Positions 5,093 to 59,536 of a DNA stretch of 64,000 bases are shown in pieces (the first letter of the stretch is position 1; each line of letters begins with the position of its first letter). The translations under genes were made by a program, and so were the position numbers. The DNA lies in the IMG/VR virus record IMGVR_UViG_3300034106_002431. One strand, given 5' to 3'. Source of the stretch: an uncultured virus (IMG/VR IMGVR_UViG_3300034106_002431). Lineage: Duplodnaviria; Heunggongvirae; Uroviricota; Caudoviricetes. The notes under the pieces were generated by a model. The model was given only the letters and a program-made list of their open reading frames with translations. It was not told the origin of the DNA and did not search any database.

Positions 5093-5755
5093 TTATTTAC
5101 CACTAAGTATATGATTTATCTCTATATGATTTATGTTAACATGTTTTGGTAGACTTGCTACCCATCTTATAGACTCAGCCATATCTTCAGCAGTTATTGC
5201 AATCTCTCTTTTTTCTATTTGTGTATCAATTGTACCTGGACAAATCTCAGTAACTTTAATCCCATACTCTGGAAACTCTAGCCTCATGGTGTCTACAAGA
5301 GCCATCATTCCTCTTTTAGCATTTGTGTAATTTCCACCAGATCTATATGGATACTTTCCACCAAGAGAACTAACAAAAATTATTGTTGCGGACTCTGACT
5401 TTTTCATACATGGGACAAAAAGTTGAGAAAGATACATTGGGCCAGAGACATTTATATCGTAGGCTCTTCTAAAGTTATCCATTGTTTCATTGATAATGCT
5501 GGTTGGTCCAGCACCTCCTCCTGCATTGTTTACTAGCAGGTCTAGAGTTATATCTTTGTATTGATCATAAAACTTTTTTAATTCGTTGGCATTTGTAATG
5601 TCCATTTGATAGACCTCTACATTATCCCCGACTAAGCCTGAAACTTTAGAAAGATCTCTTGAAACAGCAATAACCTTATATCCATTTTCAGATAAAAGTT
5701 TTACTGTTGCATAACCAACACCTTTACTGGCTCCTGTTACTATTGCTGTTTTCAA
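5093..5755 (-). CDS. Short-chain dehydrogenase/reductase (SDR)
   Basis: TGASKGVG Rossmann motif, NNAG, YTNAK catalytic motif. Confidence 0.92.
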   Translation of the reverse strand: MKTAIVTGASKGVGYATVKLLSENGYKVIAVSRDLSKVSGLVGDNVEVYQMDITNANELKKFYDQYKDITLDLLVNNAGGGAGPTSIINETMDNFRRAYDINVSGPMYLSQLFVPCMKKSESATIIFVSSLGGKYPYRSGGNYTNAKRGMMALVDTMRLEFPEYGIKVTEICPGTIDTQIEKREIAITAEDMAESIRWVASLPKHVNINHIEINHILSGK

Positions 5756-5757
5756 TA

Positions 5758-6387
5758 TTAGTGAATCCAGTGTTGTGGAACCATGATCTTTTCACCGCTT
5801 TTGACTAAGTGTGCAGTGTGATGATATGGTGGTGATGGTGGGAAGACAATAATGCTTCCAGCCTTTGGCTTTATTGCAAATGAATAATTTCCATTATGCT
5901 CTGCTTCTGCAAAATCTGCTTCTGGGCTTGCATTCTGCAAGACTCCGTCTGGAGAAGCAATAGTGAAAGATAATTCTCCGCCTTCATAGTCATCGTTAAG
6001 ATACATTACGAAAGAAACCTTTAGTCTCTCATCTCCCTCTTGCTGATCAAAGTGAGCACCCATGTAGGTTCCTGCTTGGTACTTCTTGATTGGGTACTGA
6101 GGAAATAGTTTTGGTTCATCTGTGATACCTTGAGCCTTTGCGTAATCTCTTGCAACATCGTCAAATGCCTTTTGCAAAGTATTATAGATATACTTATCTT
6201 TTTCGTCAGCCTCTGCAGTTAATGTAATAGTCTTGTCTGTTCCATAGACATAGTGTTGTCCACTGCAAGCCATCCACTCGCCCCATTCATCCTTGTTGTC
6301 GTTTTCAATTGCATCAACAAGTTTCTTTGGGTCTTCGATTACATTTGTGTAATAGTAAACCTTTTCTTCAAGTATTTCTCTGTCCAT
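5758..6387 (-). CDS. 2OG-Fe(II) oxygenase, prolyl-4-hydroxylase-like
   Basis: HFD...YLNDDYEGGEL...HHTAH...K. Confidence 0.88.
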   Translation of the reverse strand: MDREILEEKVYYYTNVIEDPKKLVDAIENDNKDEWGEWMACSGQHYVYGTDKTITLTAEADEKDKYIYNTLQKAFDDVARDYAKAQGITDEPKLFPQYPIKKYQAGTYMGAHFDQQEGDERLKVSFVMYLNDDYEGGELSFTIASPDGVLQNASPEADFAEAEHNGNYSFAIKPKAGSIIVFPPSPPYHHTAHLVKSGEKIMVPQHWIH

Positions 6388-6398
6388 TGTATATCTCC

Positions 6399-7061
6399 TT
6401 AGTATTTATTTTTCTCATAAAAACCTGTTACCTTCATAAATCCTACAGTAACATATCTTATGGGTCCTTCTCCTACAAACCTTACTCCATGCTCATATTC
6501 TTCGTTTCCTGGGAAAATAAGCAATGTTCCTGGTTTTGGCCTTAAGTCTGAATCTTCTTTATTTTTAAAGAACAAAGTTCCATCCTTATAGTCATCATTA
6601 ATGTATAGTATAGCAGCATATCTAATGGATGGGTCTGTGTGCTGGTCTGTGTGAGACTTTAACTCAACTCCAGCCTGCATTCTTTGTAGTGTCCCAAACC
6701 CAGCAAGTTCTAGAGATGGATCTGCTAGTTCTAATAGTTTGCCTAGTCTACCTTGAAGAGTCATGCTTATCTCTTTGGTCGTAATGTTTAGATTCTTGTC
6801 TTCCCATCCCTGAGTAATTTCAAATTTTCCTTCAGCAACAAGGTTTTCTACGTCGTCTCTTCCAAACTTCTCCATGCAAAATCTAGCAAGATTCTTTGTA
6901 TACTCTATTGACCACTCTTCGTTTGGAGTAGTCTCAATTATTTCCAATATAGTGTCTAACTCTTCTGGCTTTAAAAAATCTTTTACAAACAAAACTTGGT
7001 CATGGAAAACCTCAGTATCGTAGCCAGCGTCATCAAACTCTTTTTTTAGAAATGCTTCCAT
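6399..7061 (-). CDS. 2OG-Fe(II) oxygenase
   Basis: HTD...YINDDYKDGTL...HGV...RY. Confidence 0.88.
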   Translation of the reverse strand: MEAFLKKEFDDAGYDTEVFHDQVLFVKDFLKPEELDTILEIIETTPNEEWSIEYTKNLARFCMEKFGRDDVENLVAEGKFEITQGWEDKNLNITTKEISMTLQGRLGKLLELADPSLELAGFGTLQRMQAGVELKSHTDQHTDPSIRYAAILYINDDYKDGTLFFKNKEDSDLRPKPGTLLIFPGNEEYEHGVRFVGEGPIRYVTVGFMKVTGFYEKNKY

Positions 7062-7808
7062 TTACAAATCCTCAACCTTGTACTTGTTGCCGTCAGCATC
7101 TAACTTCCAGCCTTCTTTTAACAGTTCTTGCCATTCTGCTCTTTCAATTTCTTGCTTGGCTCTAGTCTCTTTCATTTCTTCAGCCCAGGCATCTCTTAGT
7201 TCTTGTGGATAGTCTGACTCTTCTCTATCGTCCCAGAACGAACCAATAGTGTATCTAACTCCACTGGTTATAAGAGTTACTTCGTGCATGTTATTAAATC
7301 CCCCGTCAAATGCAGCAAGCATTCCTACTTTAGGCTGAAGACTTATATCTTGATCTGGGAACTGCAACATTCCACCTTCAAAGTCATCGTTCAAATACAA
7401 AAATGCTGCATATCTACTTCTTGTAAAAGCACCAGAGTGTCCATGCTCATCTGTGTTATCAGAATGCTTTCTTGCATATGCTCCTGGCTCCCACTTCTGT
7501 GTGTGGTATCCAATTTGAGAAATTATCTTTGGGTCAAGGTCGTGAACGCTTGCAACAGCATTAACAATCCCCTGTTTGATTTGTGAGAATATGTCGCTTG
7601 GCAACCCTTCATTTTCTACATGCTCATCATTGTCTTGTGGCAATACTGAAGAGTAAGACTCGTAGAAAGATATGGGCATCCACGTAATTAATCCGAGTTC
7701 TGCATGCTTGTCTAAAACCTTTACAAGTTTAGCAGCAGTCTCTGCATCAACAAAGTTTTCATAAACAACTATGTCTTTGGTTATTCTTTTTTTATTATCT
7801 AGATTCAT
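7062..7808 (-). CDS. 2OG-Fe(II) oxygenase
   Basis: HSD...YLNDDFEGG...HEV...RY. Confidence 0.88.
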   Translation of the reverse strand: MNLDNKKRITKDIVVYENFVDAETAAKLVKVLDKHAELGLITWMPISFYESYSSVLPQDNDEHVENEGLPSDIFSQIKQGIVNAVASVHDLDPKIISQIGYHTQKWEPGAYARKHSDNTDEHGHSGAFTRSRYAAFLYLNDDFEGGMLQFPDQDISLQPKVGMLAAFDGGFNNMHEVTLITSGVRYTIGSFWDDREESDYPQELRDAWAEEMKETRAKQEIERAEWQELLKEGWKLDADGNKYKVEDL

Positions 7809-8677
7809 TTTATCCTTCTTTCTTTGTCAGCACTACTTTTATTAGGATTCTCATCTCTAAATTTTTGCATAATATCTTTTTGCATTTCCTGCCACTTTTC
7901 TTTGCCAAACTTTTCTTCATTTTCAAACCACTCTGAATCGCCAACAGAATACTTTGTCCAGTACATTCTTGAAAGATATTTTGATTTATGTTTTGCTGGC
8001 ATGACTCCATGAAGATATATATATTTTTCAGACATTAGAAAATCTGGATGACCTGATGGGAAAACAAGAAGGTCTCCAGCCTCTGGCTTATACATATACG
8101 CTTCTCCGTTTACTATAAAGTCAATTTCTCCACCTTCGTAGTCGTCATTAAAATAGGTTAAAGCAGTAATTGCAAACTTGTGTCCTGGGCTTACAATTGG
8201 CTCTCTTATATAGTCTGTATGGTATGTCATTGCTACTGAATCTTCAATATCTGGTGTATACCTTGCAATAGATGGACCAGTATATTCCCAATCGCTAATT
8301 ATATTTCCATTTTGATCTTTAATGTCTGGAACAATTTTATTTTCATCAAAATCAACATTATTTTTTGCAATATAGTCTTTTGTTGCTATCATAAAATTAT
8401 TTAAAATTTCCAAAAGAACTTGCTTATGCTCTTCTTGCTTTTCTGTTGAAGTTTCCACTTTTTCAGCATGCTCTATTTTTAAATTATCGTTGTATCCTTT
8501 AAATATTGGATTAATATATTCGCCAAACTTAGACCAGGGTGTCCATGGACTAAACAGACCGTCCTCTTCTCCATTAGACTCTTTTAAAAGGTTATAGGTT
8601 TTATCAATATCTTTAAAAAGACCCTTGTATACAAAAATCTTTGGATATATTTCAACTACATTGAAGGAATTTGTCAC
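7805..8677 (-). CDS. 2OG-Fe(II) oxygenase
   Basis: HTD...YFNDDYEGGEI...HGV...KY. Confidence 0.86.
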   Translation of the reverse strand: MTNSFNVVEIYPKIFVYKGLFKDIDKTYNLLKESNGEEDGLFSPWTPWSKFGEYINPIFKGYNDNLKIEHAEKVETSTEKQEEHKQVLLEILNNFMIATKDYIAKNNVDFDENKIVPDIKDQNGNIISDWEYTGPSIARYTPDIEDSVAMTYHTDYIREPIVSPGHKFAITALTYFNDDYEGGEIDFIVNGEAYMYKPEAGDLLVFPSGHPDFLMSEKYIYLHGVMPAKHKSKYLSRMYWTKYSVGDSEWFENEEKFGKEKWQEMQKDIMQKFRDENPNKSSADKERRIK

Positions 8678-9348
8678 GGCTTTCTATCTCCTGTGTGTTC
8701 TGTGATTTCCCAGAAGAACGGACATGTATATCTAATACCACTCTTAATCTCTGTTACTCCGTGAATATAGTTTTTATCCCCTGGGAAAAAATATGCTGCA
8801 CCTTTTTTAGGTTTAAACTGAACTCCTTGTAGTGGGAAGTAAAGTTCTCCACCCTCATAATCATCATTCAAATAGAACAAACTAGAAAGGTCGTAGTTTG
8901 GAAAATCATTTGGAGTTCCAGCATCTGGACCTTCATGCAGTTCTTTGTCTGCATGAGGCTTCTGTAACTGGCCAGGTAGCCATCTAACAATGGTTGTTCC
9001 AGTAGGAATAACCTTTACCTTGTAGAACTCTTCAACTATTGGCTTTAGTCTTTCAAACAGACCTGCAATAATTGGAGCAATCGATGGATCATTCTTATCT
9101 AGAGTAGGACTAGTAGCAACCCTGTCTTTCCAATAACTTGCTTCATATACAACAGTTCCATTTTCATTAACATGGCTTTCAGTAACATCCCAAATTGTTA
9201 ATGACTTTGCAGCCTTTTCTAGAAACTCTATTTCTTCTTGAGTCATAAAATTTTCTAACTCAACAATCATATCTTTGCTATTACCAAACCAGCCTGACGG
9301 TGTCATTGATGGTTTTCTTTGTACTACCTTATATTCATCCATGTTCAT
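8674..9348 (-). CDS. 2OG-Fe(II) oxygenase
   Basis: HAD...YLNDDYEGGEL...HGV...RY. Confidence 0.88.
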   Translation of the reverse strand: MNMDEYKVVQRKPSMTPSGWFGNSKDMIVELENFMTQEEIEFLEKAAKSLTIWDVTESHVNENGTVVYEASYWKDRVATSPTLDKNDPSIAPIIAGLFERLKPIVEEFYKVKVIPTGTTIVRWLPGQLQKPHADKELHEGPDAGTPNDFPNYDLSSLFYLNDDYEGGELYFPLQGVQFKPKKGAAYFFPGDKNYIHGVTEIKSGIRYTCPFFWEITEHTGDRKP

Positions 9349-10061
9349 ATTGTATCACCATTCGTGTTATCTTTAACTGAAAGTTTTAAGGCTTTTACTT
9401 CGTGAGAACCCAGACTTTCTCCCTTTTCATTAACAGCATCTCTATACCAATCTGTCCATTTCCCAGACTTATTGACTTCTTGTGCTGCTTCTCCGTAGGA
9501 TATGTTTGCTTTTTCTTTTGACCTGTCCTCATCTCTATATTTAACAAGTTCTATGACTGTGTTATTTAAACTTGTTAGAGATATAGGAATAACAGTTGCT
9601 ATTGGAGTTCCTGCTTTTATAACCACTCTTTGATTTGCTTTTCGTGCTTTAATGGCTAGTGGGAGTGGATTAGGATAAAAAGATGTACTGATCAAATTAG
9701 ACATAGTCTCAAAGTCTTCGCTGAAATAGTTTACTGGATTAATTGTCCAAATGCTGATGTCTGGATCTGTTTTAAAAACCAAACTAGTGTTTAAACTTAT
9801 AGAAGCCTGACCTCTTCCAGCATAAGAACTTGTTGGACTAAATATTTTTATATGCTGATCTGTTTGGTCAGTTATTCCATCCCATTCAAATTCAATATCT
9901 TCTGTGCAAGAAAGGTTCCATCCAACGACGTTTGCCTGTGTTACTGGAAAACATCTGTATGCGTGGTTTTCTGATGTTGCATCCATCCATTCTCTTTTGA
10001 TTGACATTGGGCTAATCTCAAAGTTACTCCCTTGCATTTTTTCTACTGAAATATTTAGCAT
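9345..10061 (-). CDS. Conserved protein, DUF6065-like
   Basis: REWMD...AYRCFP...ANVVGW N-terminus and GTPIATVIP near the C-terminus; start placed at the ATG overlapping the upstream stop. Confidence 0.55.
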   Translation of the reverse strand: MLNISVEKMQGSNFEISPMSIKREWMDATSENHAYRCFPVTQANVVGWNLSCTEDIEFEWDGITDQTDQHIKIFSPTSSYAGRGQASISLNTSLVFKTDPDISIWTINPVNYFSEDFETMSNLISTSFYPNPLPLAIKARKANQRVVIKAGTPIATVIPISLTSLNNTVIELVKYRDEDRSKEKANISYGEAAQEVNKSGKWTDWYRDAVNEKGESLGSHEVKALKLSVKDNTNGDTI

Positions 10062-10744
10062 TACTCTTGATCCCATTTTGAATCATACATGTCTGGTGTA
10101 TGATACTTTTTGCTGTAATCTAACATAGTTACAATTGAATACTTTGTTCCAGAGTGCACTGGCATTGCCTGATGAGGATACATAAAGTTAGACGGGAAGA
10201 TATAAAGATCTCCAGCCTTTGGCTTAATGTTTAAGCCCTGCAATCTAAAGAACAACTCTCCACCATCATAATCATCATTTACATATGCAACTAAAGAAAG
10301 AGTGCAGTTATAAGAATATCCATGATCATGATGCTCTTTAAAGTGTTGTCCTGGGCCATACTTAATAAAATTAAATGCCTCCCAATACTTAAGTGGCATG
10401 ATGTTGTAATCTCTTCTGTAATCTTCTACTGCTGCAAACTGTGCATCATAGACATCTTGCCACAGTTCCTGAAGATTTAATGAGTCTTGGCTTTTGTCTA
10501 ATTCTATATCTGTTTTCTTAAACTTAAAGTCAACGCAGTCTCTATAGTCTGGCATAAGTTGCTGATATCCTACATATGCTGGCATCCAGTGATATCTTTT
10601 TCCTTCTGCTGACAACTCTCCATATCCAGCAACTGATCCTAGATTGGCTTCAAGTCTGTTTATCACATCAAACTCTTTCTTAATTACGCCTCTATAGCAA
10701 ATAATTCCATTGCCAAGATCTTCTTTTTCTGTCCATGTCTGCAT
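10061..10744 (-). CDS. 2OG-Fe(II) oxygenase
   Basis: HHD...YVNDDYDGGEL...HQA...KY; AAGGAG RBS before the ATG at 10744. Confidence 0.88.
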   Translation of the reverse strand: MQTWTEKEDLGNGIICYRGVIKKEFDVINRLEANLGSVAGYGELSAEGKRYHWMPAYVGYQQLMPDYRDCVDFKFKKTDIELDKSQDSLNLQELWQDVYDAQFAAVEDYRRDYNIMPLKYWEAFNFIKYGPGQHFKEHHDHGYSYNCTLSLVAYVNDDYDGGELFFRLQGLNIKPKAGDLYIFPSNFMYPHQAMPVHSGTKYSIVTMLDYSKKYHTPDMYDSKWDQE

Positions 10745-10754
10745 TGTATTCTCC

Positions 10755-11522
10755 TTATTTGTATTCTCTGCGGGACCAAACTTTTTTAATGTACACTCCT
10801 CCATCAGGTTGCCGATAGAATTTTGCGTTATCTACCATTTTACCATATATCTCAGACTGCCCTAAAATTTCTATTTCGTGTTCCCAGTTTTCTCTTTTAA
10901 ATGGTAGTACCTGCATGTATGGGGTTCCAGCAGGGAGCGTTCCTTCCCAGCCTTCTGCTATAAAAAATGGAAAACTTCCAAGAAGATGTACCTTGTCAGA
11001 ATCTACAACTCCAGTTGTGTTCATAAACGGAAGATCAAACCTATTCATTGGTGTCATAAATAATGCGCTATAGCCTTCTGGCAACTCTAGGCCCCATGGA
11101 GAACTCCACGCAAAGTGGTACTGGTAGTATCCTTTAGGGTGTTCAAACTGTGGCATTGGTGGTCTTTGTGTACAGAAGTCTTTATACTTAGGGTCATCAA
11201 TTGTAACATTTATAATACCCTGAGAATTTTTAGCAAACTTTAAATCGCATGGAGTTTTAAAAACATATCCAGTTGCAAACGCATCCATGATTGCAGGACA
11301 CGCTTTCCATGTAGGGATCTTTCCATAATCATCTGTTGTGCCTTCTTTGGGAAATGGACAGACCTCTTTTGGTGCTTTATAGTATTCACCACTTGGCATT
11401 TTTGCAAATCTATCTGCATCCTTATACCAGTCTGGCATTTCTTTTTGTGTTGGTACTGGCGTAGAAATATTATCTTTATCTAACCAGGGTCTGAAAGATC
11501 TGAACTTAGCGACTAAAGACAC
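10755..11522 (-). CDS. Conserved phage protein, distantly like the neighbouring DUF6065-type protein
   Basis: TWKACPAIMDAF...GVVDSD...AGTPYMQVLPFKRE. Confidence 0.5.
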   Translation of the reverse strand: MSLVAKFRSFRPWLDKDNISTPVPTQKEMPDWYKDADRFAKMPSGEYYKAPKEVCPFPKEGTTDDYGKIPTWKACPAIMDAFATGYVFKTPCDLKFAKNSQGIINVTIDDPKYKDFCTQRPPMPQFEHPKGYYQYHFAWSSPWGLELPEGYSALFMTPMNRFDLPFMNTTGVVDSDKVHLLGSFPFFIAEGWEGTLPAGTPYMQVLPFKRENWEHEIEILGQSEIYGKMVDNAKFYRQPDGGVYIKKVWSRREYK

Positions 11523-12235
11523 TACTTGTGTCCTAGTTCATTAATGTCTGTCATTACGACAACACAATACTTTGTTCCCTCTTTCATAGGCAATGAAGCA
11601 TGCTCATAGATATAGTTTGATGGGCAAAGAACAATGTCTCCTATTTTTGGACTATGAGTGTAGTTGTCCATTCTTGGAAACCTAATTTCTCCACCTTCGT
11701 AGTCTTCGTTTATATATACAACAGCCGATACCGTACAGTTGTACATTGGACCGTGGTCTGCATGAATATTAAAGTGGGTTCCTTCTCCTTCATACTTTAC
11801 AAAGTTAAAGGCTTCATAATACACAACATTGATGCCCCAATATCTAGCATAATCATCAACACATAACTTTAACTTTTGATAAATTTCTTCATGAAGATCA
11901 ATAAGTTCAGAGTTGTGTTCATCTCTTGGTCCCAAGTTTTCTTGCTTAAACCTAAAGTCTACAGCGTCTCTAGCCTTCTTAATTGGGACATCAGAATTAG
12001 TTACTTTTGCTTCTGACCATTTATACTTACCGTTTCCGCCAAGATTTGATTCTAGAATGTTTATGTATCTTTCAGAATCTTCTTTTGAAAATACGTTTCT
12101 ATATAGGTTAATTCCTAATGCTGGGTTTTCAACTAAAATATTATTCTCAATAGTTCTTGATGGATATCTGTTTACTGCAGTTTCTGATCTATCCTTAGTG
12201 AACCAAGGGGTCTCATTTTCATCATAAGTTGTCAT
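11522..12235 (-). CDS. 2OG-Fe(II) oxygenase (paralog of 10061-10744)
   Basis: YEAFNFVKY, HADHG, YINEDYEGGEI, HAS...KY. Confidence 0.88.
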   Translation of the reverse strand: MTTYDENETPWFTKDRSETAVNRYPSRTIENNILVENPALGINLYRNVFSKEDSERYINILESNLGGNGKYKWSEAKVTNSDVPIKKARDAVDFRFKQENLGPRDEHNSELIDLHEEIYQKLKLCVDDYARYWGINVVYYEAFNFVKYEGEGTHFNIHADHGPMYNCTVSAVVYINEDYEGGEIRFPRMDNYTHSPKIGDIVLCPSNYIYEHASLPMKEGTKYCVVVMTDINELGHK

Positions 12236-12308
12236 AAATTATTTCCCTATTCCTTTGTTTTAGTTGTGATTATATTATATCACAAAACAATTGTCTAGAT
12301 ATTTTTTA

Positions 12309-12737
12309 TTAAACTGGTGAGATTTCTCTGGTTACTTGATTGTATGAAACCTTTGTTCCATTAACTGCAAAAGCACATTTTACCAAGAACACTTCTCCAG
12401 CAAATGCTGCATCATAAAGTTCTGCCTTTTCGTTATCAGAGTCCATACTCATTCTGTGGATAATCTTGTTTCCACATAAGAAAGCATACTGCTTATATGA
12501 GTCTTTTTCTTCTTGAGTCAGGGCTAAGAAGCCTTCATTTGCAGTTCCGTCAAATGATGTTCCATTCCAGGTTGAACCCTTTGTGGCTGTTGCCTTATGG
12601 TCTGTTATGTTCATACCAACTACAGGAAGACCTTTATCCCACTCAGAATCAAGAGAGGCTCTTACTTCCTCCGTAGTTCTAAGTGCTGAGATTACATCAT
12701 AAGTATCTTCAGTATCTTTAACAATTATTGCGTACAT
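12309..12737 (-). CDS. Hypothetical protein
   Basis: 142-aa ORF with AAGGAG RBS, directly downstream of the Pro/Phe-repeat gene. Confidence 0.7.
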   Translation of the reverse strand: MYAIIVKDTEDTYDVISALRTTEEVRASLDSEWDKGLPVVGMNITDHKATATKGSTWNGTSFDGTANEGFLALTQEEKDSYKQYAFLCGNKIIHRMSMDSDNEKAELYDAAFAGEVFLVKCAFAVNGTKVSYNQVTREISPV

Positions 12738-12773
12738 AGTTTAGATCTCCTTTAGTGTAGTATAACATATTTA

Positions 12774-13820
12774 TTAACACCCACAACTACCGCAGCAACC
12801 AGGGCATGCTTGCCAGCAATAACTTCTGATACATCCTGAACAACCACTGCTAGTGAAGGTTGGTGGGAAGAATGGTGGGAAGAATGGGAAGAATGGGAAG
12901 AACGGTGGGAAGAATGGGAAGAACGGGAAGAATGGGAAGAATGGTGGGAAGAACGGGAAGAACGGGAAGAACGGTGGGAAGAATGGGAAGAACGGGAAGA
13001 ATGGGAAGAATGGTGGGAAGAACGGGAAGAATGGTGGGAAGAACGGTGGGAAGAATGGGAAGAATGGTGGGAAGAACGGTGGGAAGAATGGGAAGAATGG
13101 TGGGAAGAACGGTGGGAAGAATGGTGGGAAGAACGGTGGGAAGAATGGGAAGAACGGGAAGAACGGTGGGAAGAACGGTGGGAAGAATGGGGGGAAAAAT
13201 GGGGGGAAGAACGGGAAGAATGGAGCAATAGTAGTTACGTTGTTAGATGCTGGTGATGTTGCTGATGTTCCATTAGCATTTACTGCTCTAACAGTGTAAG
13301 TCTGTGCTGTATTTGCTTCTTGTCCAACAGAGACTGAAGTTCCTGCTGTTGAGTTAGTCTTGCCATCTGATGCTGCCCAAACATAAGAGGTAATTGCACT
13401 TCCTCCGTTTGCTGGTGCTGTCCAAGAAACTGAGTCAGCATCTACTCCTGCTGTTGCAGTTGGTGCTGAAGGAGTTGCTGGTACTGTTGTTACTGTTACT
13501 GCAGCAGAAGCAGCAGATGCTGCGGAAGTTCCTGCAGCATTAGTTGCTGTTACTGTAAATGTTACAGATGCTGCTGACGCAATACCTTCAACAATAAGTG
13601 GAGAAGATGCTCCAGTTTTTGTTTGTCCAGTACTTGCTGTTACTGTAAAAGATGTAGCAGCAGGAGAAAGTGCTGGTAAAGAAAACGCTACAGAAACTGC
13701 TCCATTATTGAAGGCTCTTCCTGTTCCAACGTTTGTTCCTGTAACACCTGTTGGTGCTAATGGCTCCAAGAAGTCATTTGACGCTTGGGACTTTCTACCT
13801 GATTTCTTACCTGCTGCCAT
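12774..13820 (-). CDS. Fibronectin-III-domain virion protein with a long Pro/Phe-only repeat and a Cys-rich C-terminus
   Basis: FN3 signatures (VSWTAPANGGSAITSY, YTVRAVNANG); about 120 aa of PPFF/PFF; ends GCSGCIRSYCWQACPGCCGSCGC. Confidence 0.8.
   Translation of the reverse strand: MAAGKKSGRKSQASNDFLEPLAPTGVTGTNVGTGRAFNNGAVSVAFSLPALSPAATSFTVTASTGQTKTGASSPLIVEGIASAASVTFTVTATNAAGTSAASAASAAVTVTTVPATPSAPTATAGVDADSVSWTAPANGGSAITSYVWAASDGKTNSTAGTSVSVGQEANTAQTYTVRAVNANGTSATSPASNNVTTIAPFFPFFPPFFPPFFPPFFPPFFPFFPFFPPFFPPFFPPFFPPFFPFFPPFFPPFFPFFPPFFPPFFPFFPPFFPFFPFFPFFPPFFPFFPFFPPFFPFFPFFPFFPPFFPFFPFFPPFFPPTFTSSGCSGCIRSYCWQACPGCCGSCGC
12860..13222 (-). repeat. Tandem 9-/12-nt coding repeat (PFF/PPFF)
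   Basis: GGTGGGAAGAAY and GGGAAGAAY units on the + strand. Confidence 0.95.
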
Positions 13821-20037: not shown

Positions 20038-20817
20038 TTACTGTGTGCCTCCCAGCCATACTGGAAGGAACTTTGAGGAGTTTGAAGAAAAATAATGACG
20101 AACAACATGTGTGTCTTTTTTGTCTTCAACATGCATTAAAACATCATCTTTGTCGAAGTATCTATGAAGATTCCTTGAACTAAAATAGTCAAATACCGAA
20201 TATTGAATTATTACCCAGGGTAATTGATAGTAGTCTTTTTCAGAAAGAAGTGTTTTATATTTTTCTAAAGTGTAGTTAATATATTGTTTCATTGATGATA
20301 GACACATGTTTTTGTGCTTTAAAATATTTTTACTAATAACTGTTATTCCATCATTTATAGCAGGGTATATCTTTAATGTTTTAGTTAGGTCATCACAGGT
20401 ATCTTCTCTGCTCCAAAGAAACTCTGTATTTCCATATTTTTCAAAAAGTTCTTCTGGATCTCTAAAAAACTCAGTATCTGTGTCCATATTAATAATATTA
20501 TCAAAATCAAAATCTTCTAGGCCTCTAAAAGCATTAACCCACCTATGCTCAACCACTCCTGCACTCCAAAATCCTGAGTGCCAATCTAAACTTATAATAT
20601 TATCAAAATGTATAAACTCTGTGTTTGGATCTTCTGGAAAATAAACAGAATGGCTATCTGGCAATCCAGGCTTATGAGAATAGTAAATTTTTACACTTAT
20701 GTCTTTGTTTATTTTTCTCAAAGTATTTAGTGAATGAGACAACTGCTTATACATATGGTTGTGCTCAATGCTTATCTTTTCATCAAGAACCATAGAAACC
20801 ACTATTCCATTTTTCAC
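20038..20817 (-). CDS. Putative GT-A glycosyltransferase-like protein
   Basis: SLNTLRK, IINMDTDTEF (DxD), INDG, Q and HYF elements of nucleotide-sugar transferases. Confidence 0.6.
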   Translation of the reverse strand: MKNGIVVSMVLDEKISIEHNHMYKQLSHSLNTLRKINKDISVKIYYSHKPGLPDSHSVYFPEDPNTEFIHFDNIISLDWHSGFWSAGVVEHRWVNAFRGLEDFDFDNIINMDTDTEFFRDPEELFEKYGNTEFLWSREDTCDDLTKTLKIYPAINDGITVISKNILKHKNMCLSSMKQYINYTLEKYKTLLSEKDYYQLPWVIIQYSVFDYFSSRNLHRYFDKDDVLMHVEDKKDTHVVRHYFSSNSSKFLPVWLGGTQ

Positions 20818-21338
20818 TCTAAATCTCCAAACATAAAAGATATGGCTGCTCTTGGAGTTAAAGATGTTACTTCATGCATAACAGTTTTTGGAACATAAAT
20901 AACATCTCCTGGATTAAGTGTATGCACCTCAGACTCGTCTTCATCAAATATTGTCCATGTGGCAGAGCCAACAAACTGAGCATAAATGACATCTATGGGG
21001 TCATTGTGCTTACTTGTTGTGGGCTCTTTAGTTGTAAAACTTACTGCCCCAAAATATCCAATGCATTTGCTAGGCTTTGATAACTCTTGGTGTAACTGTG
21101 TTAGTTTGTTTGCTTTATCTTCAACCCCTGGAAAATTTTTCTCATTAATGTTTTCTAGAGTCAATGTTAGTTTCTGAAAAAAGTTTATATTTCCGATAAC
21201 CTCTTTACCAAAAACTATTCCGTTCTTTGGATTGCTTAGATCATACGCATCATTAATAGAATTAATAAAATTGTTCCAGGAGTAGTCTTGATTAAAGAAG
21301 TTATTTACAACAACTACATTTCCCTTATTTGTTTTCAT
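20814..21338 (-). CDS. JmjC/cupin-type 2OG oxygenase
   Basis: HNDPIDV...QFVGSATW...LNPGDVIYVP...HEV. Confidence 0.8.
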   Translation of the reverse strand: MKTNKGNVVVVNNFFNQDYSWNNFINSINDAYDLSNPKNGIVFGKEVIGNINFFQKLTLTLENINEKNFPGVEDKANKLTQLHQELSKPSKCIGYFGAVSFTTKEPTTSKHNDPIDVIYAQFVGSATWTIFDEDESEVHTLNPGDVIYVPKTVMHEVTSLTPRAAISFMFGDLE

Positions 21339-21897
21339 TTTGAAGTTCCCATTGCTCTTCTGTTATTTGCCCTCTTACCACCTGAAGATATTCTACTCCC
21401 TTGGTAAACCACCAATGGTCTGGCTCAGCAAAGTGAAAGAAAATCATAGCAACATGATTAGTTTCTGGGTTAGGAAATTTTTCACGCCAGTGCATTTGAT
21501 CATTACCGTAGTACGCAAGTGCCTGATTTTTATAAAGAGTATATGCCTTGTCCTCAACAAAAAGGTCCCACGGCTCATTCTGATAAACACACATATCTAG
21601 AGTGTAGGTACATGCATTATCATCTTTGTGCTTATAAAGACTTGGTTCGGGATCTTGACCCTCATAATGTGCAAATAGGGTATATGTTGGAAGAAGTGTT
21701 TCACTATTAAATATTTCTCTGGCAGTTTCTGTTAGTTTGTCTGCCAACTCTCCTAAAATTGGTAGTCCACCATCTCCAATACAGTACCTGCTAAATCCAG
21801 GGTCAAAGCCAAAACTCTTAGGATTATCTAAAGATTGTAAAAGTCTTGAGTAATCCTCATCGCTTAACAAACTATCTACTAGTATTGGCTCTATCAT
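21325..21897 (-). CDS. 2OG-Fe(II) oxygenase-like protein
   Basis: LYKHKD...C.YTL...HWRE. Confidence 0.65.
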   Translation of the reverse strand: MIEPILVDSLLSDEDYSRLLQSLDNPKSFGFDPGFSRYCIGDGGLPILGELADKLTETAREIFNSETLLPTYTLFAHYEGQDPEPSLYKHKDDNACTYTLDMCVYQNEPWDLFVEDKAYTLYKNQALAYYGNDQMHWREKFPNPETNHVAMIFFHFAEPDHWWFTKGVEYLQVVRGQITEEQWELQNENK

Positions 21898-22565
21898 CTT
21901 AACCAACTAACGACTGCATACCTTTCTCCCTCAGTTACTGGAGACACAGAATGGTTGTATACATAAGTTGATGGGAAAACTATCATCTGATTTGCTTTAG
22001 GCTTAAAAGAAAGATTAAATCTTGGAAAATTTAATTCTCCTCCAGAATAGTTATCGTTAAGATAATACAAAGTTGACACTCTTCTATGGTAATCTGGATG
22101 ATCATCTATGTGATTTGTAAATTTTTGACCTACCCCATATTTTAAAATTTGATAAGAGTCATGCCAGGAGCAGGATATTCCATAATTATTTTGATAATTG
22201 TTTTCTATAGAAACCAAGTTTTCTAAAAAAAGATTAGCCATAGAGGTATAGAATGTTGAACTTACACTTGAGTAATCATCTTTTTCTGTTTCTGAATATG
22301 GAATACTGATGGTTTGTGTGTCTCTTGACTCTGTATTCACATTTGTCTCTACAGCATCCCCGATTCCAGTTTTTACCCGTGCTGCTTGCCATTCTATTTT
22401 TGCTGACAACATACCTTCTTCAAGGTCAAAAACAAAAGTTTTAAAAATATCTTCAGGAATTACATTTTCATAAGCCATGATTCCTGGTGCAATTTCGGTT
22501 CTTTCTATAGCCCTATATTTATTAAAAATTATTCCTTTATCGTTTTCCCAAAATACCTTTTCCAT
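21894..22565 (-). CDS. 2OG-Fe(II) oxygenase, prolyl-hydroxylase-like
   Basis: HID...YLNDNYSGGEL...HSV...GERY. Confidence 0.9.
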   Translation of the reverse strand: MEKVFWENDKGIIFNKYRAIERTEIAPGIMAYENVIPEDIFKTFVFDLEEGMLSAKIEWQAARVKTGIGDAVETNVNTESRDTQTISIPYSETEKDDYSSVSSTFYTSMANLFLENLVSIENNYQNNYGISCSWHDSYQILKYGVGQKFTNHIDDHPDYHRRVSTLYYLNDNYSGGELNFPRFNLSFKPKANQMIVFPSTYVYNHSVSPVTEGERYAVVSWLR

Positions 22566-22566
22566 G

Positions 22567-22806
22567 TTACCACTTCCCTAATGGACATACTGCCACTTGT
22601 AGTTTTGTTTTGGCTATCATAAAACATCCGCACTTTTTGCATTGTTTTGTTAATTTAATTAGTTCTGGACATGCTTTACAGATAGAGTATCTTTCTTCTG
22701 CTACCTCGGCAGTAGCCCACTCTGTTGAGGGGTTTACAATGTCCCAAGGCCTAGTTTCTCCCAAATTTTGTTTATATTTTTGCCAAGGAGTTAGTTCTTC
22801 TGACAT
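22567..22806 (-). CDS. Small Cys-rich metal-binding protein
   Basis: ERYSICKAC...QCKKCGCF...KTKL...CPLGKW. Confidence 0.7.
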   Translation of the reverse strand: MSEELTPWQKYKQNLGETRPWDIVNPSTEWATAEVAEERYSICKACPELIKLTKQCKKCGCFMIAKTKLQVAVCPLGKW

Positions 22807-45229: not shown

Positions 45230-45823
45230 ATGATCAATTATAAAAATAGCAAGAGTTCTTCATTCCAAGAGTCGTTTGCCATATCTATGACCCAGGAGAA
45301 GAAGAATGGTTTCTATGTAGAGTTAGGCTCAGCAGACCCATATATCGAAAGTAACACCTATTTACTAGAATCTGAGTTTGGATGGAAGGGGCTTGCCTTA
45401 GAAATTGATGAAGGTCTGGCTCAAAGATATAACTCCTCTGACCGTACTAACAAGTGCACTAACGCTGATGCTTTAACCTTTGACTACCTGTCTTATTTTA
45501 GAGACAATAACTTCCCAAAGACTATTGACTTCTTGCAGATTGATATTGATGGACATGACAAAGGAAACTGTCTATTAGCCCTCCTAGCCCTGCCTATGCT
45601 ACAGTATAGATTTTCGGTCATAATCATTGAGCATGACCTGTCTCAAAACTACAAGAGAGCCTCCATGAGAGATGCTCAAAGAGAAATCTTAAGCAGCCTA
45701 GGATACAAACTAATTGGGCAAACCCTTAGTGAAGACTGGTGGATCGATCCAGAATCAGTAAACCAAGAAGCCTATAGATATGATATCTTCAACGGACATC
45801 CACTTATTGGAGAAGTAAAATGA
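45230..45823 (+). CDS. FkbM-family methyltransferase-like protein
   Basis: GFYVELGS...SNTYLLE...WKGLALE...IDFLQIDIDG. Confidence 0.78.
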   Translation: MINYKNSKSSSFQESFAISMTQEKKNGFYVELGSADPYIESNTYLLESEFGWKGLALEIDEGLAQRYNSSDRTNKCTNADALTFDYLSYFRDNNFPKTIDFLQIDIDGHDKGNCLLALLALPMLQYRFSVIIIEHDLSQNYKRASMRDAQREILSSLGYKLIGQTLSEDWWIDPESVNQEAYRYDIFNGHPLIGEVK

Positions 45824-46392
45824 ATGTAATCCAACACGCAGATGGCATATATGAAATAGAAGATTTCCTAAATGATGAAGAGCAAGAACTATTTCTATCT
45901 TCATGCACAGATGATGGATGGGAAGAGTCTCACCCAGGAAACATAACTAAGCCAATGACAAATGAAGAGTTTAGTCTAAGAGATAAACTGCTTGCTAGGC
46001 TAGGTACTTTTTTTGAAAACGTGGATTCTTTCTCTACTGTTAATCGCCTAAGAAGACTAACAACAGGTGAGTTTATGTGGCCTCACGTAGATGCTGGAAA
46101 GCCTCCAATACTTCCAGACACTGTAACCCCCATAGAAACTCCAGTAGAATCAAAGAGTATAGTCTTTGGGGTTGCGATATATCTAAATGACAAGTTTACA
46201 GGTGGTGAGTTATCCTACCCAGATATTGAACTAGATATCTATCCAAAGCCTAGAAGTGCAGTTATTCATAATGCTAAGTTTAACCATGAAGTTAAGACTG
46301 TTACCTCTGGTAATAGATATTCTATAACAGCATTTATTTATGGTGATGAGACTACCAAGTTTAATGGCCATGCCCAGGATAATAACCAATAG
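45820..46392 (+). CDS. 2OG-Fe(II) oxygenase
   Basis: HVD...YLNDKFTGGEL...HEV...GNRY. Confidence 0.88.
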   Translation: MNVIQHADGIYEIEDFLNDEEQELFLSSCTDDGWEESHPGNITKPMTNEEFSLRDKLLARLGTFFENVDSFSTVNRLRRLTTGEFMWPHVDAGKPPILPDTVTPIETPVESKSIVFGVAIYLNDKFTGGELSYPDIELDIYPKPRSAVIHNAKFNHEVKTVTSGNRYSITAFIYGDETTKFNGHAQDNNQ

Positions 46393-51638: not shown

Positions 51639-52682
51639 CTACTTTGAACTTATTTCTGCTACTCTCGCCTTTGAGAATTTAAGCATAGAACTTCTGATTG
51701 GCGAGTAGCCAAGATCTTCAGCCTTCTTTCCACAGGTATCAAGCATGAAGTTAAAGAACTTTTTAACTGAATCATTCTTTGAGTTCTTTTCTTTGTATGC
51801 TACACCATAGGTAAATGTAGATATGTTATAAGATAGTTTGTTTGGGTTCTTATAGTTTATCTTAACTACACCACTTTTATCTGGAATAAAATCTCCAAGA
51901 AATACAGAGGCTGCGCTAACTGTTGGTTGTATAAACCTTCTAGCCTCATTCTCAACAGACACTGTCTTTAGTCCTCTTGCATATGATATCTCATTATATC
52001 CAATAGAGCCATTTGTAGTGCTCTGTACCATTGCAATTCCATGTGATCCAGAAGCACTGTTCATATACTGCTTAGATATGTCTCCAGGAAATGCACTTGA
52101 AAAGTTTTTATTTCCTGGCTTTGTCCAAATTGTTGGAGCCACAGCATTTAAATATGAAGTAAAAACTTCTGAAGTTCCAGAACCATCAACACGGTATACA
52201 ACTCTAATCTTTGTTGCTGGTATCTTAGGTAGTTTTCCTGATATAAGGTTTTCTTTTAATATCTGTGGGTCGTTCCACATTGTTATTTGTCCCGCAAAAA
52301 CTTTAGCAAGAGTATCTTTACTCATCTTTATAGTAACTTTATATCCATCAAGTTTGTAGATAATTCCAATTGGCCCTGCTACTAATGGAACATATGTAAA
52401 CTCTTTTGATGGCTTTACTTCTGTCCCAGAGTAAGGAACATCTGACATAGCAAAGTCTGTTACTCCATTTGAAAACATATTCTTTCCAGCACCTGAACCA
52501 GATGCTCCATACACAACAGAATCTCCTGTTGATTTCATAAATTCGACCCTGCATCTGTCTATAAAGTTAGCAGCAAATGTGGATCCAGCACCTTGAAGGT
52601 TATCGGCATGTGAAGGGGTAATAAAAAAAGCATTAGCAAATATGGCTAATGCTGCTGATAAAGCAATGAATTTAAATTTCAT
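51639..52682 (-). CDS. pstS: Phosphate ABC transporter substrate-binding protein
   Basis: Signal peptide; GAGSTF, GSGAG, DFAMSD, YRVDGSGTS. Confidence 0.92.
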   Translation of the reverse strand: MKFKFIALSAALAIFANAFFITPSHADNLQGAGSTFAANFIDRCRVEFMKSTGDSVVYGASGSGAGKNMFSNGVTDFAMSDVPYSGTEVKPSKEFTYVPLVAGPIGIIYKLDGYKVTIKMSKDTLAKVFAGQITMWNDPQILKENLISGKLPKIPATKIRVVYRVDGSGTSEVFTSYLNAVAPTIWTKPGNKNFSSAFPGDISKQYMNSASGSHGIAMVQSTTNGSIGYNEISYARGLKTVSVENEARRFIQPTVSAASVFLGDFIPDKSGVVKINYKNPNKLSYNISTFTYGVAYKEKNSKNDSVKKFFNFMLDTCGKKAEDLGYSPIRSSMLKFSKARVAEISSK

Positions 52683-52758
52683 ACTTATAGTATATACGAC
52701 AAGGCTATAAAGTTTTGTTATAAATGGCAAACAAACAAAGAACTTTAGATGAATAATG

Positions 52759-52873: not shown

Positions 52874-53290
52874 CTACTTAATTTTAATAGACTTGGGCTT
52901 TTTATCTTCAGGAACAATACGAACCACATTAACATGCAGCATCCCGTCCTTAAGTTCTGCAGATGTTACTTCCATATACTCTCCCAGTGCAAAAGATCTT
53001 ACGAACTTTCTTCCTGCGATTCCTTTATGAACTACCTCTGCATCTGTAACTTCAACAATCTCACCCTTGATAATCAATGTTCCGTTATCTACTGAAACAT
53101 CAATATCGTCTTTTGAAAAACCAGCGACAGCCAGTGAAATCTTGTATGTATCTTCATCTAGTTTGATTAGATCATACGGAGGGTATGACTGTGAGTTTGT
53201 TTTATGTGCTGTATTTAGGCGACTCAACTCTCTGTTGAAGCCAATAAAAAAAGGATCATTGAATAGATCCATAGCGTACTTTGTTACCAT
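52874..53290 (-). CDS. Small heat-shock protein (Hsp20/IbpA-like)
   Basis: YPPYD, AVAGF, HKGIAGRKF.RSF.L, A.LKDGML. Confidence 0.93.
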   Translation of the reverse strand: MVTKYAMDLFNDPFFIGFNRELSRLNTAHKTNSQSYPPYDLIKLDEDTYKISLAVAGFSKDDIDVSVDNGTLIIKGEIVEVTDAEVVHKGIAGRKFVRSFALGEYMEVTSAELKDGMLHVNVVRIVPEDKKPKSIKIK

Positions 53291-57459: not shown

Positions 57460-57744
57460 TTAGACCCAATGTTTAATTATAGCACTTACAGCAAGAATTG
57501 TCCACAGTATATTAAACCAAATAATTGTAGGCAAAGTCTTTACTGTCGATGACCAAATCAATGCAAGGCTTGATACCAATGCAAAGATGTATAGCCACCA
57601 CCATTGCTTACCGAATAGTAAGCCTGGAAATATAATAGATATTTTTGTCATAAAAGCAAAGAACTCAACAGTGTTTGGCTTGTTCCAATACTCTTTGTGT
57701 CTCATTGTCTTTAGAGCATTAATCCACTCTGTTCTAAATTTCAT
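57460..57744 (-). CDS. Small membrane protein
   Basis: Three hydrophobic segments. Confidence 0.6.
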   Translation of the reverse strand: MKFRTEWINALKTMRHKEYWNKPNTVEFFAFMTKISIIFPGLLFGKQWWWLYIFALVSSLALIWSSTVKTLPTIIWFNILWTILAVSAIIKHWV

Positions 57745-59285
57745 TTTAATCCCTCCAAAAATTTCCTGTGATCTACACATTCTGACACCTTGTAGTCTTG
57801 ATATTTCTTGTAATAGTCATACATATCAACACCCTTTTTATAGTCTGCAGAATTTTCTATATATGCTTTTGCAACATCTTTATTAATTGTGTTGTGTGCA
57901 GATCCCACAAAGGTCCAACTATTTGATGACCAGTGCTCTCCAGAGTCAAACTTGTTTGGAAGTCTGACATTCCACTTGTTAATTTTTTCTTGCAGATCTT
58001 TTGGCGCATTCTCATATGAAAACTTTTTCCAAAACTCTGTATCATTTCTTAAAGTCATATAGTGAAAATATATAAATTCAGAAATATTATTGTTCATACT
58101 AACTATGTTCTTGTTAAACTCTTGTCTTATCTCTTTCGAGTTCTCGAATAGCCATAGCGGATTGTCAAATATCTGTGTCAACTCTACAATGCTAACCCAA
58201 ATTGATGTTGCTTCTAGTGGCTCAACAAAGTTTGCTGCAAGGCCTACTGCAACACAGTTGTTGATCCAGGGCTCTTCATAGCATCCAGCATTAAACTTAA
58301 AGCCACCCTTGTCTTTTCTTGGATAGGTTGGCTCATAGCCTAAGAACTCTTCTATCTCTTTCACTGCTGCTTCTTCAGAGATAAGGGATGAGTCGTAGAC
58401 ATACCCACAACCAAACCTGTTCTGGAGTGGAATCTTCCACATCCATCCGTATTTCATAGCAATTGCTTCTGTGTAGGATGGAATCTTATCTGTCATCTCA
58501 ACAAAAAATGGAACAGCAGAATCTACTGGAAGAAAATCTTTATAACTTTTCCATTTAGAGTCATATACTTTTCCAATGATTAGCCTGTGAAATCCGCTAC
58601 AATCAAAAACAAAATCACACATAATCTTTTCATCATTTTCTAAAGTTAAACCATTTACATAGTTATCTTTATCTAGTGAGACATTTTTTATTGTGCCATC
58701 AACTACTTTAATTCCTCTTTCTTTTCCTATTTCTTTTAGTCTATTTGCTAGTTTGGTAGCATTAAAATGTATAGAAATATTTCCTATTTTTTTATAATCA
58801 TCTATAGGATCTTTTTTAGATACAAATCCGAAATCTCTCTTGTTTGCTTCCAAAGTAAAGGGGACTTTATTTGCTTCTGAAATTTTTTCTGTAAAGTCTA
58901 TCTTCTTTACGCTATTATTTAAAGCAATGCTTGCTGCAATAAGAGGGCTATTAGAAAGATACCTATCGTACACAGCATCAAAGCCTAGCGACCTATCTGT
59001 TGTAGAAAAACCATGGTAATAAAACTCTCCATCATTGTTCCAATTTGTAAACTTGATTCCATTTTTAATAGTTGCATCACAATTTTTTATTAGGTCAGAC
59101 AAAGGAATATTTAAATGGTCAAAGAAATCTGCAAGGTATGGGGTTGACCCTTCTCCTGCTCCCAAGATTCCTATTTCTGTTGACTCAATAACAGTTATGT
59201 TTAGGTCTGGGTATGATCTTTGGGCTTTAAGTGCAGTAAGCCATCCAGCACTTCCACCACCAACAACAACTATATTCTTTGTCAT
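57741..59285 (-). CDS. Tryptophan-halogenase-family flavoprotein
   Basis: GGGSAGW, GAGEGSTP, ATIKNGIKF.NW, FVFDCSGF, GWMWKIP, FVEPLEATSI. Confidence 0.9.
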   Translation of the reverse strand: MTKNIVVVGGGSAGWLTALKAQRSYPDLNITVIESTEIGILGAGEGSTPYLADFFDHLNIPLSDLIKNCDATIKNGIKFTNWNNDGEFYYHGFSTTDRSLGFDAVYDRYLSNSPLIAASIALNNSVKKIDFTEKISEANKVPFTLEANKRDFGFVSKKDPIDDYKKIGNISIHFNATKLANRLKEIGKERGIKVVDGTIKNVSLDKDNYVNGLTLENDEKIMCDFVFDCSGFHRLIIGKVYDSKWKSYKDFLPVDSAVPFFVEMTDKIPSYTEAIAMKYGWMWKIPLQNRFGCGYVYDSSLISEEAAVKEIEEFLGYEPTYPRKDKGGFKFNAGCYEEPWINNCVAVGLAANFVEPLEATSIWVSIVELTQIFDNPLWLFENSKEIRQEFNKNIVSMNNNISEFIYFHYMTLRNDTEFWKKFSYENAPKDLQEKINKWNVRLPNKFDSGEHWSSNSWTFVGSAHNTINKDVAKAYIENSADYKKGVDMYDYYKKYQDYKVSECVDHRKFLEGLK

Positions 59286-59488
59286 TACTTTCTCCCCCAT
59301 TTAACCTTATTCCAACCACGCTCATGGAAGTAATAAAGGATTGTTTTTGTAACTACCTCGAAACTTGCGATTGCACCTGCTGTAACTGGTTCTTTGGTTA
59401 TAAGCCAAGCAATAGCAAATGTATCTGCTGTTCCAATTATACGCCAGGTAATGGCCTTTAATGCTGATCTTTGTTTAGATACATTCAT
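59285..59488 (-). CDS. DUF2061 membrane protein
   Basis: RSALKAITWRI...YYFHERGW. Confidence 0.85.
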   Translation of the reverse strand: MNVSKQRSALKAITWRIIGTADTFAIAWLITKEPVTAGAIASFEVVTKTILYYFHERGWNKVKWGRK

Positions 59489-59536
59489 GCTGGCCACTCC
59501 ATATTTTTAGGACCTTTACTGATTATGTTCCAAACC

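Follow-up and report, generated by a model that had tools for sequence, protein, structure and literature searches.

Phe-rich repeat tracts co-vary with enzyme toolkits in uncultured tailed phages, candidates for oxidative tailoring of a fiber polymer

Hydroxylation and glycosylation of a virus's own repeat proteins is known from Mimivirus, one enzyme of which acts on the viral collagen. For Synechococcus phage Syn9, Iyer, Abhiman, de Souza and Aravind (2010; PMC2938197) described a tandem dioxygenase array that includes a dUTPase-fold protein with a conserved Cys; the available text of that paper proposes small-molecule synthesis and leaves the substrate unnamed. Thus, the array type (in silico, substrate-less) and the idea that viruses hydroxylate their own repeats were both known already. 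Here, we analyzed a 64,000-nucleotide stretch of an uncultured virus (IMG/VR record IMGVR_UViG_3300034106_002431), called the window below, in which positions 5093 to 13820 hold a gene for a repeat protein with a tract of only Pro and Phe, followed by an array of seven 2-oxoglutarate (2OG)-Fe(II) oxygenases (Ox7 to Ox1), two DUF6065-like genes (DUFb and DUFa) and a short-chain dehydrogenase/reductase (SDR). As in Syn9, tandem divergent oxygenases stand together with a Cys-bearing protein of predicted dUTPase fold, and Trp halogenase-like genes occur in the genome. No published account of this system was found in the literature searched, which left subscription journals largely outside its coverage and supplements unread. 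Among the relatives of this locus, tract type and enzyme toolkit co-vary, and on that comparison it is likely that the enzymes act chemically on the tract.

An earlier note on this DNA had reported about 120 residues of only Pro and Phe, and this was borne out: residues 200 to 320 of the repeat protein comprise 68 Phe, 53 Pro and nothing else. Across 68 related array loci (5,505 tract residues), Phe makes up 51%, Pro 42% and Tyr 2.5%; Leu occurs once, while Tyr is tolerated, and the 89 tracts of other classes contain no Leu in 5,541 residues. The codons vary synonymously over the same 68 loci (TTT 247, CCG 574, CCT 212), although these counts are non-independent owing to the relatedness of the phages and repeat expansion, and the tract detector favors aromatic-rich windows. 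Since the tract stays in frame in all 68 loci, varies synonymously and admits a single Leu, it is not a product of chance, and an artefact or a non-coding repeat was ruled out. As judged from these coding sequences, the tract is selected as protein. Leu codons lie one base from TTC and CCA, yet Leu is excluded, so an aromatic ring seems to be required. Phe, not Pro, is the residue shared among all tract types, which are hosted by large FN3, PASTA or tail-type proteins. An FN3-anchored scan returned the further types FSFTP, FGFSP, FSVFGFF and (GAF)n, and GAF tracts with at most one Pro occur in 14 of the 170 unique FN3 proteins. In the loci L249-L278, (Gly-Ala-Phe)n runs with a collagen-like period without Pro and is followed by Hint and a DUF6065-like gene. 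A variant with periodic Cys (PxFCP; L077-L079) keeps a reduced array, and two FN3-repeat genes lie within one locus in L126 and L228.

The co-occurrence of such tracts with oxygenase arrays, which the earlier note had proposed to look for, was found. When Ox5 was used as the anchor, a Pro/Phe/Tyr tract lay upstream in 57/57 informative loci (23/80 were too short), and in a distant lineage with an Ox5 about 60% identical, the same held for 68/68 (12/80 too short), so that a Pro/aromatic tract lies upstream in all 125 informative array loci. Downstream DNA sufficed for 164 of the 170 unique FN3 proteins; of these, 66 combine a PP tract with an array, 1 has a PP tract without an array, 95 have a non-PP tract and no array, and 2, both with Pro-rich xFCP tracts, combine a non-PP tract with an array. 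In the unbiased FN3 scan, the corresponding counts were 40 (PP, array), 0 (PP, no array), 9 (non-PP, no array) and 2 (non-PP, array). Short tracts pair with short arrays (L059, L067), and the shortest are accompanied by Ox6 only, with or without Ox7, DUFb and a sulfotransferase-like gene.

This pattern extends to whole genomes. In 12 large records (5 PP and 7 non-PP), the array was found in 5/5 Pro-rich genomes and in 0/7 genomes with (GAF)n, FGFSP or FSFTP tracts, its orthologues scoring 141 to 460 bits in every PP genome, whereas no score in a non-PP genome exceeded 123 bits. An unbiased profile of 1,381 open reading frames from the 12 genomes yielded only the array genes and oxygenase paralogues as PP-specific (5/5 versus 0/7), and array genes are thus nearly the sole genes that track Pro-rich tracts. 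The non-PP genomes have a toolkit of their own, with two other DUF6065-like proteins and one oxygenase in 7/7 versus 0/5 genomes; the oxygenase OxH occurs in 7/7 non-PP and 1/5 PP genomes. A 213-aa protein also belongs to the non-PP-specific set, and no tie between this 213- to 224-aa protein and DUF6065 was established. The genes of the non-PP toolkit are divided among loci 40 to 65 kb apart. Directly behind non-PP tracts stands either OxH (tract upstream in 79/80 loci) or another DUF6065-like gene, which, when used as the anchor, gave a non-PP tract in 45/49 loci, the remainder being too short. OxH has a 2OG-oxygenase fold according to its model, forms 1 to 4 tandem copies behind Gly/Ser-Phe tracts (L158-L237) and gave no meaningful Pfam or NCBIfam match.

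In a core tree of 25 genes from 11 genomes, tract class changes three times and the Pro-rich genomes form no clade (approximately unbiased [AU] test, p 4e-58). Three genomes (G005, G017 and G018) have a ribonucleotide reductase (RNR) 96 to 98% identical to that of the window, yet carry the other tract class. Moreover, a second, unrelated upstream protein agrees with the FN3 protein in its tract class and its end in 7/8 genomes, and its last 40 residues score best against the FN3 protein of their own genome in 6/8. Because polymer type and enzyme set are exchanged together among relatives, tailoring of the polymer by these enzymes is probable. At a finer scale, Ox2 goes with long PPFF tracts and Ox4 runs against Tyr; such links of individual enzymes to features of the tract track lineage, carry no multiple-test correction and were not used.

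The locus lies in the tail region of a tailed phage, with tail-fiber PHROG and Mtd_N matches upstream (Pfam, PHROGs), and a class II RNR follows the SDR. Gene content, positions and the shared minus strand were confirmed, as were the two FN3-like domains (the Pfam fn3 match, E 4.6e-4, is under the cut-off here and over it in relatives), the HxD...H triads of the seven oxygenases, all of which are over the PF13640 cut-off, and the split between Lys and Arg at the 2OG site (Table 1). The earlier note had listed neither the 142-aa gene that separates the repeat gene from Ox7 nor the 8-Cys tip that ends the repeat protein. Ox6 probably starts at an ATG at 10744. An FkbM-like gene occurs in 11 of the 40 complete arrays; the SDR, which had been regarded as a cassette member for further redox chemistry, is better described as an accessory, given its presence in only 21 of them.

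Table 1. Features of the tract-array locus and of a second cassette in the window. Array counts are from the 40 of 68 array rows that reach the cassette end, one locus being counted twice.
Feature	Coordinates	Strand	Complete arrays	Remarks
Repeat protein, 348 aa, two FN3-like domains, Pro/Phe polymer and Cys-rich tip	12774..13820	-		Last gene of tail-fiber block
Pro/Phe-only tract, 121 residues, candidate substrate	12861..13223	-		17 PFF + 17 PPFF
8-Cys C-terminal tip	12777..12842	-		Relatives have Hint domain, S74-type chaperone or nothing instead
142-aa protein, no known family, candidate tip partner or assembly chaperone	12309..12737	-		Goes with Cys tips
Ox7, PF13640, Lys type, core	11522..12235	-	39/40	Cys at P4H Arg position, Phe at Tyr position
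DUFb, DUF6065-like, predicted dUTPase fold, core	10755..11522	-	40/40	Invariant Cys75
Ox6, PF13640, Lys type, core	10061..10804	-	40/40	39% identical to Ox7
DUFa, DUF6065 (PF19541)	9345..10076	-	38/40	Cys kept, without dUTPase motif-3 Asp; Pro-rich genomes only
Ox5, PF13640, Arg type	8674..9348	-	38/40	
Ox4, PF13640, Lys type, variable	7805..8677	-	26/40	
Ox3, PF13640, Arg type	7062..7808	-	38/40	Arg one position off P4H Arg
Ox2, PF13640, Arg type	6399..7061	-	34/40	
Ox1, PF13640, Lys type	5758..6387	-	37/40	
SDR (Pfam adh_short), accessory	5093..5755	-	21/40	
Second repeat protein, 738 aa	22852..25068	-		Tail-type N-terminus, 32 PTPVA units, two PPFF tracts
79-aa CxxC protein	22567..22806	-		DUF6171 E 6.5e-6, slightly under cut-off; behind second repeat protein
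Oxygenase, candidate true prolyl hydroxylase for (PT)n/PTPVA	21894..22565	-		Prolyl-hydroxylase Arg + Trp kept
Oxygenase-like gene	21325..21906	-		Second cassette
JmjC/cupin gene	20814..21338	-		Second cassette
259-aa protein, no family match	20038..20817	-		Second cassette

The FN3 repeat protein has at least 531 viral relatives (IMG/VR). The phage is from a lake, and its host would be freshwater Actinobacteria, an assignment made from the WhiB gene of the window alone. Five matches to bacterial genomes (75 to 91% identity) lie on short contigs (4 to 17 kb) of unrelated metagenome-assembled genomes and are probably mis-binned phage DNA. Four RNA runs, each from a different study, yielded contigs that cover relatives of the array genes; such contigs can show neither transcription nor its level. 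A glutathione peroxidase-like gene (L069:15238-16011; L377:10032-10874) occupies the place of Ox4 in some arrays; in G001, the nearest record, and in G029 it lies outside the array, and it is absent from the 7 non-PP genomes. The window also carries an FkbM methyltransferase and oxygenase pair (45230-46392, plus strand), and relatives of both adjoin the SDR inside the arrays of other phages. A second tailoring-type island (57741-62265, minus strand) with Trp halogenase-like, APS kinase-like, Asp/Asn beta-hydroxylase-like and sulfotransferase genes adjoins a CHAP amidase, and genes for a PstS-like phosphate-binding protein (51639-52730) and Hsp20 (52874-53290) lie on the minus strand.

DUFa matches DUF6065 in Pfam (E 2.5e-30). 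DUFb has no Pfam match, shares PHROG 7084 with DUFa and is grouped by the ESM Atlas into clusters of DUF6065; its model (pLDDT 94.9) retrieved in Foldseek rows that were all dUTPases or dCTP deaminases among those listed (probability 0.99 to 1.00, E 1e-3 to 1e-2). By this model, DUF6065 is a dUTPase fold. dUTPases have five catalytic motifs, and it is in these that DUF6065 differs from dUTPases and dCTP deaminases: among 71 DUF6065-like sequences, motif 5 occurs in none, PxNR/PxHQ replaces the RSG of motif 2, the motif-3 Asp is present in 56/71 and the motif-4 Gln is partly kept, while Cys75 is invariant and an N-terminal extension is added. The family comprises 4,668 clusters at 50% identity, and DUF6065-like genes occur in 18/18 near-complete genomes of either tract class. 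In a profile search, one DUF6065-like protein was fused to a GlcNAc transferase of PF11397, to which the Skp1 hydroxyproline transferase also belongs. Among 897 candidates, there was no longer, fused form of DUFb. A distant cassette of the non-PP genomes holds such GlcNAc transferases along with carbamoyltransferases. In the hafunaviruses HSTV-2 and HF2 (L287:5857-6726, L288:5866-6750), a DUF6065-like gene lies between nucleotide-metabolism genes and Gly-rich adhesin-like genes.

The C-terminal module of the FN3 protein, which lies between tract and array, is itself exchanged: on the FN3 tree it changes 33 times, tract class 8 times and the array 7 times. Hint forms the C-terminal end in 73/170 unique FN3 proteins of both tract classes (L013, L019, L020, L032, L035, L040, L073 and others), with the HN near the end kept in 31 of the 73, and an S74 fiber chaperone can occupy the same place as the Cys tip or Hint. 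The 142-aa gene follows Cys tips in 37/42 cases and other ends in 1/128; in a distant lineage, a relative of it also stands behind non-Cys ends. The 142-aa protein had no match in Pfam, PHROGs, the PDB or the ESM Atlas, and a complex prediction with the Cys tip (score 0.02) gave no answer either way.

The second cassette pairs another repeat protein with its own enzymes. This protein has the same Cys tip as the FN3 protein, plus small Cys-rich modules. The oxygenase at 21894 matches the Bacillus anthracis prolyl 4-hydroxylase (BaP4H) at E 1.3e-9, and the residues R161 and W221 (equivalents of Arg161 and Trp243) are present in 18/18 sequences, with Phe at the Tyr position. With this type of oxygenase as the anchor, a Pro-rich gene of the (PT)n/PTPVA type lay upstream in 76/76 informative loci (4/80 too short). 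From its sequence, it is the best candidate for a true prolyl hydroxylase, with (PT)n/PTPVA as the presumed substrate, and it more probably acts on PTPVA than do the array enzymes, for which the earlier note had offered PTPVA as a substrate.

That note had also likened the seven enzymes to collagen-type prolyl 4-hydroxylases (P4Hs), which would turn the tract into a hydroxyproline polymer. In favor of this, the array tracks Pro-rich tracts, the Ox6/7 profile matches BaP4H best in the PDB (E 1e-7) and the PBCV-1 P4H too, and Ox6/7 keep the equivalents of Glu127, Tyr134 and Lys. The nearest solved structures (E 1e-12 to 1e-4) are BaP4H (5hv0), the algal CrP4H, P3H1, PHD2, the lysyl hydroxylase LH3 and PKHD-type enzymes, mostly peptide hydroxylases that the profiles match at similar levels, and the likeness of the array enzymes to them is limited to the fold, the substrate-binding Tyr and Arg not being kept. 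In the available text of Horita (2015; PMC4396695), the Tyr (Tyr140) is kept in all P4Hs and the Arg (Arg161 of CrP4H) in all P4Hs and prolyl 3-hydroxylases, and an accessible part of Timmins (2017; PMC5684110) gives computed losses of activity for Arg161 mutants. Here, Tyr140/Tyr310, three residues before the first His, is found in none of the seven; F, F, Q, M, A, T and M (Ox7 to Ox1) take its place, each 100% conserved within its family. The Arg161/Arg322 equivalent, with its position set by the spacing from the YxND motif in the BaP4H alignment, is missing in Ox7, Ox6, Ox5 and Ox4 (C, C, Y and F, followed by a non-basic residue). In Ox3, Ox2 and Ox1, S, I and L stand in register and R, R/K and K/R one residue later, in a region where HMMER places a one-residue gap, so the Arg test is not conclusive for these three. 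The conserved Arg and Tyr are thus missing or out of register in all seven, and the neighboring oxygenase at 21894 keeps the Arg, so the test can be passed here. The Lys at the 2OG site, taken as a mark of collagen-type enzymes, proved non-diagnostic: the prolyl hydroxylase OGFOD1 binds 2OG via Arg230, as stated in the text seen of PMC4396695, so that Lys in 4/7 fails to separate prolyl hydroxylases. Finally, a single reaction would not need seven enzymes of 24 to 39% identity over aligned stretches; each family fixes its own pocket residues at about 100%, as expected for distinct reactions. We therefore regard conversion of the tract by seven collagen-type P4Hs as unlikely.

It is rather doubtful that the enzymes serve the synthesis of a small molecule or act on molecules of the host, with host matching or a shared variable island behind the co-variation. 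Secondary-metabolite synthesis was proposed for the Syn9 array in the part of PMC2938197 that treats it, DUF6065 is a nucleotide-enzyme fold by its model and often adjoins RNR, DUF6065-like genes exist without tracts, and the window has Trp halogenase-like, sulfotransferase and APS kinase-like genes; however, the close relatives by RNR combine the other tract class with the other toolkit, which is spread over two or three separate loci, short tracts accompany short arrays, the second enzyme-repeat pair behaves alike, and dUTPase motif 5 is missing in 71/71. The proteins might instead serve mainly to bind the aromatic polymer or to help it fold, so that this aggregation-prone chain stays in solution until it is assembled, with catalysis secondary. 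This would fit the loss of dUTPase motifs in DUF6065, the Phe richness of every tract class and the presence of DUF6065-like genes in all near-complete genomes, but it is quite unlikely in view of the invariant DUF6065 Cys and of metal triads and 2OG residues that are 98 to 100% conserved in six families (for Ox2, the first His is at 71% in an automatic alignment). Oxidation of the tract followed by cutting into small modified PFF/PPFF peptides (signal or antimicrobial), as in ribosomally synthesized and post-translationally modified peptides, would account for two alternating short units, many tailoring enzymes, the self-cleaving Hint domain in many relatives and weak NCBIfam matches to peptide-maturing oxygenases (YhhC, E 0.025). 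The array genes that could be identified include no protease or exporter, the tract forms part of large proteins, and the S74 chaperone can fill the place of Hint, all of which make this very unlikely.

Several observations also weigh against action of the array on the tract. Three of the four scans were enzyme-anchored, and only the FN3-anchored scan was unbiased. G027, incomplete and without core genes, was left out of the core tree. Independent pairs on supported branches number only 4 to 5, none of them opposite (p at best 0.06). Three tail genes track the non-PP class (6/7 versus 1/5 genomes), so some lineage signal is left, and some of the non-PP toolkit genes lack a neighboring repeat gene. 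DUF6065-like genes without a Phe tract stand beside nucleotide-metabolism genes in hafunaviruses and cyanophage S-RIM4, and PKHD-type enzymes of unknown substrate score level with P4Hs. The FN3 repeat protein had no match among cultured phages. The proposal of the earlier note that the enzymes modify the adjacent repeat protein is nevertheless favored by the co-occurrence, while its arguments from the P4H label, the Lys, the SDR and PTPVA were not supported. Of the Pro and/or Phe hydroxylation it envisaged, the Phe part agrees with the comparative data no less well than the Pro part.

On the preferred reading, in which the enzymes tailor the tract, the repeat and enzyme genes, on the same strand and abutting, would form a single expressed run that closes the tail-fiber block. 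The core of Ox6, Ox7 and the Cys-bearing DUFb would bind the hydrophobic PFF/PPFF polymer, and several of the Fe(II)/2OG enzymes, whose fixed pocket residues differ from one to the next, would oxidize different positions of it. The chemistry would probably not be plain trans-4 prolyl hydroxylation and would probably include Phe, which may be hydroxylated (beta or ring), desaturated or cross-linked; that the polymer undergoes such non-canonical oxidative tailoring, probably with Phe involved, is in our judgment an evenly balanced proposition. The optional SDR, FkbM methyltransferase, sulfotransferase and glycosyltransferase may finish some of the new groups, and the exchangeable C-terminal module (Cys tip with its partner, Hint or S74 chaperone) may handle assembly independently of the enzymes. 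The modified polymer would then be displayed on the virion, on two different proteins, for attachment or protection. A bolder picture, which we hold less likely than not, is of a large clade of freshwater actinophages that turns Phe-periodic fiber polymers into a non-proteinogenic polymer by one of two exclusive genome-wide toolkits. In this picture, the product would be hydroxy-, dehydro- or cross-linked Phe, with or without oxidized Pro, the Cys-bearing DUF6065 proteins would represent a novel kind of peptide-modifying enzyme or scaffold, and the ribosomally templated surface polymer would be swapped by phages like a serotype.

In aquatic phages, 2OG-Fe(II) oxygenases rank among the most frequent orphan genes, with 214 cultured-phage records matched by Ox6 alone, and they are usually classed under metabolism or repair. 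The present locus offers a defined, synthesizable candidate substrate, with the other tract class and the other toolkit as built-in negative controls. If the preferred reading is true, tailed phages chemically tailor their own fibers, DUF6065 gains a function, and enzymes that processively oxidize aromatic or Pro-rich peptides could become useful tools. In the cultured cyanophage S-SCSM1 (L376:4537-6349), oxygenase genes flank two tail-fiber genes, one with a long Arg/Gln/Pro/Phe low-complexity insert.

Among known systems, the PBCV-1 P4H (PDB 5c5t) is likewise virus-encoded, belongs to the same superfamily and acts on Pro-containing peptides; it differs in being one enzyme with the P4H signature and no Phe polymer. 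The precedent drawn from it by the earlier note is weaker than claimed: the relevant part of a review (PMC7019647) reports that hydroxyproline was sought in purified PBCV-1 virion proteins and that these attempts failed. The Mimivirus collagen lysyl hydroxylase/glycosyltransferase (PDB 6ax6) gives a weak match to the Ox6/7 profile, and differs as a single bifunctional enzyme for collagen Lys in a giant eukaryotic virus. The bacterial beta-hydroxylase and sulfotransferase operons predicted in PMC2938197, as far as the available text describes them, resemble this locus in that an adjoining repeat or fiber protein is the proposed substrate, with sulfation as a later step there; they differ in using other oxygenase families and collagen-like or tail-collar proteins with Gly-X-Y repeats, and both cases are predictions only. 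Compared with Syn9, as portrayed in the same available text, the locus described here has a candidate protein substrate that co-varies with the enzymes, and the phages that carry such tracts have two exclusive toolkits.

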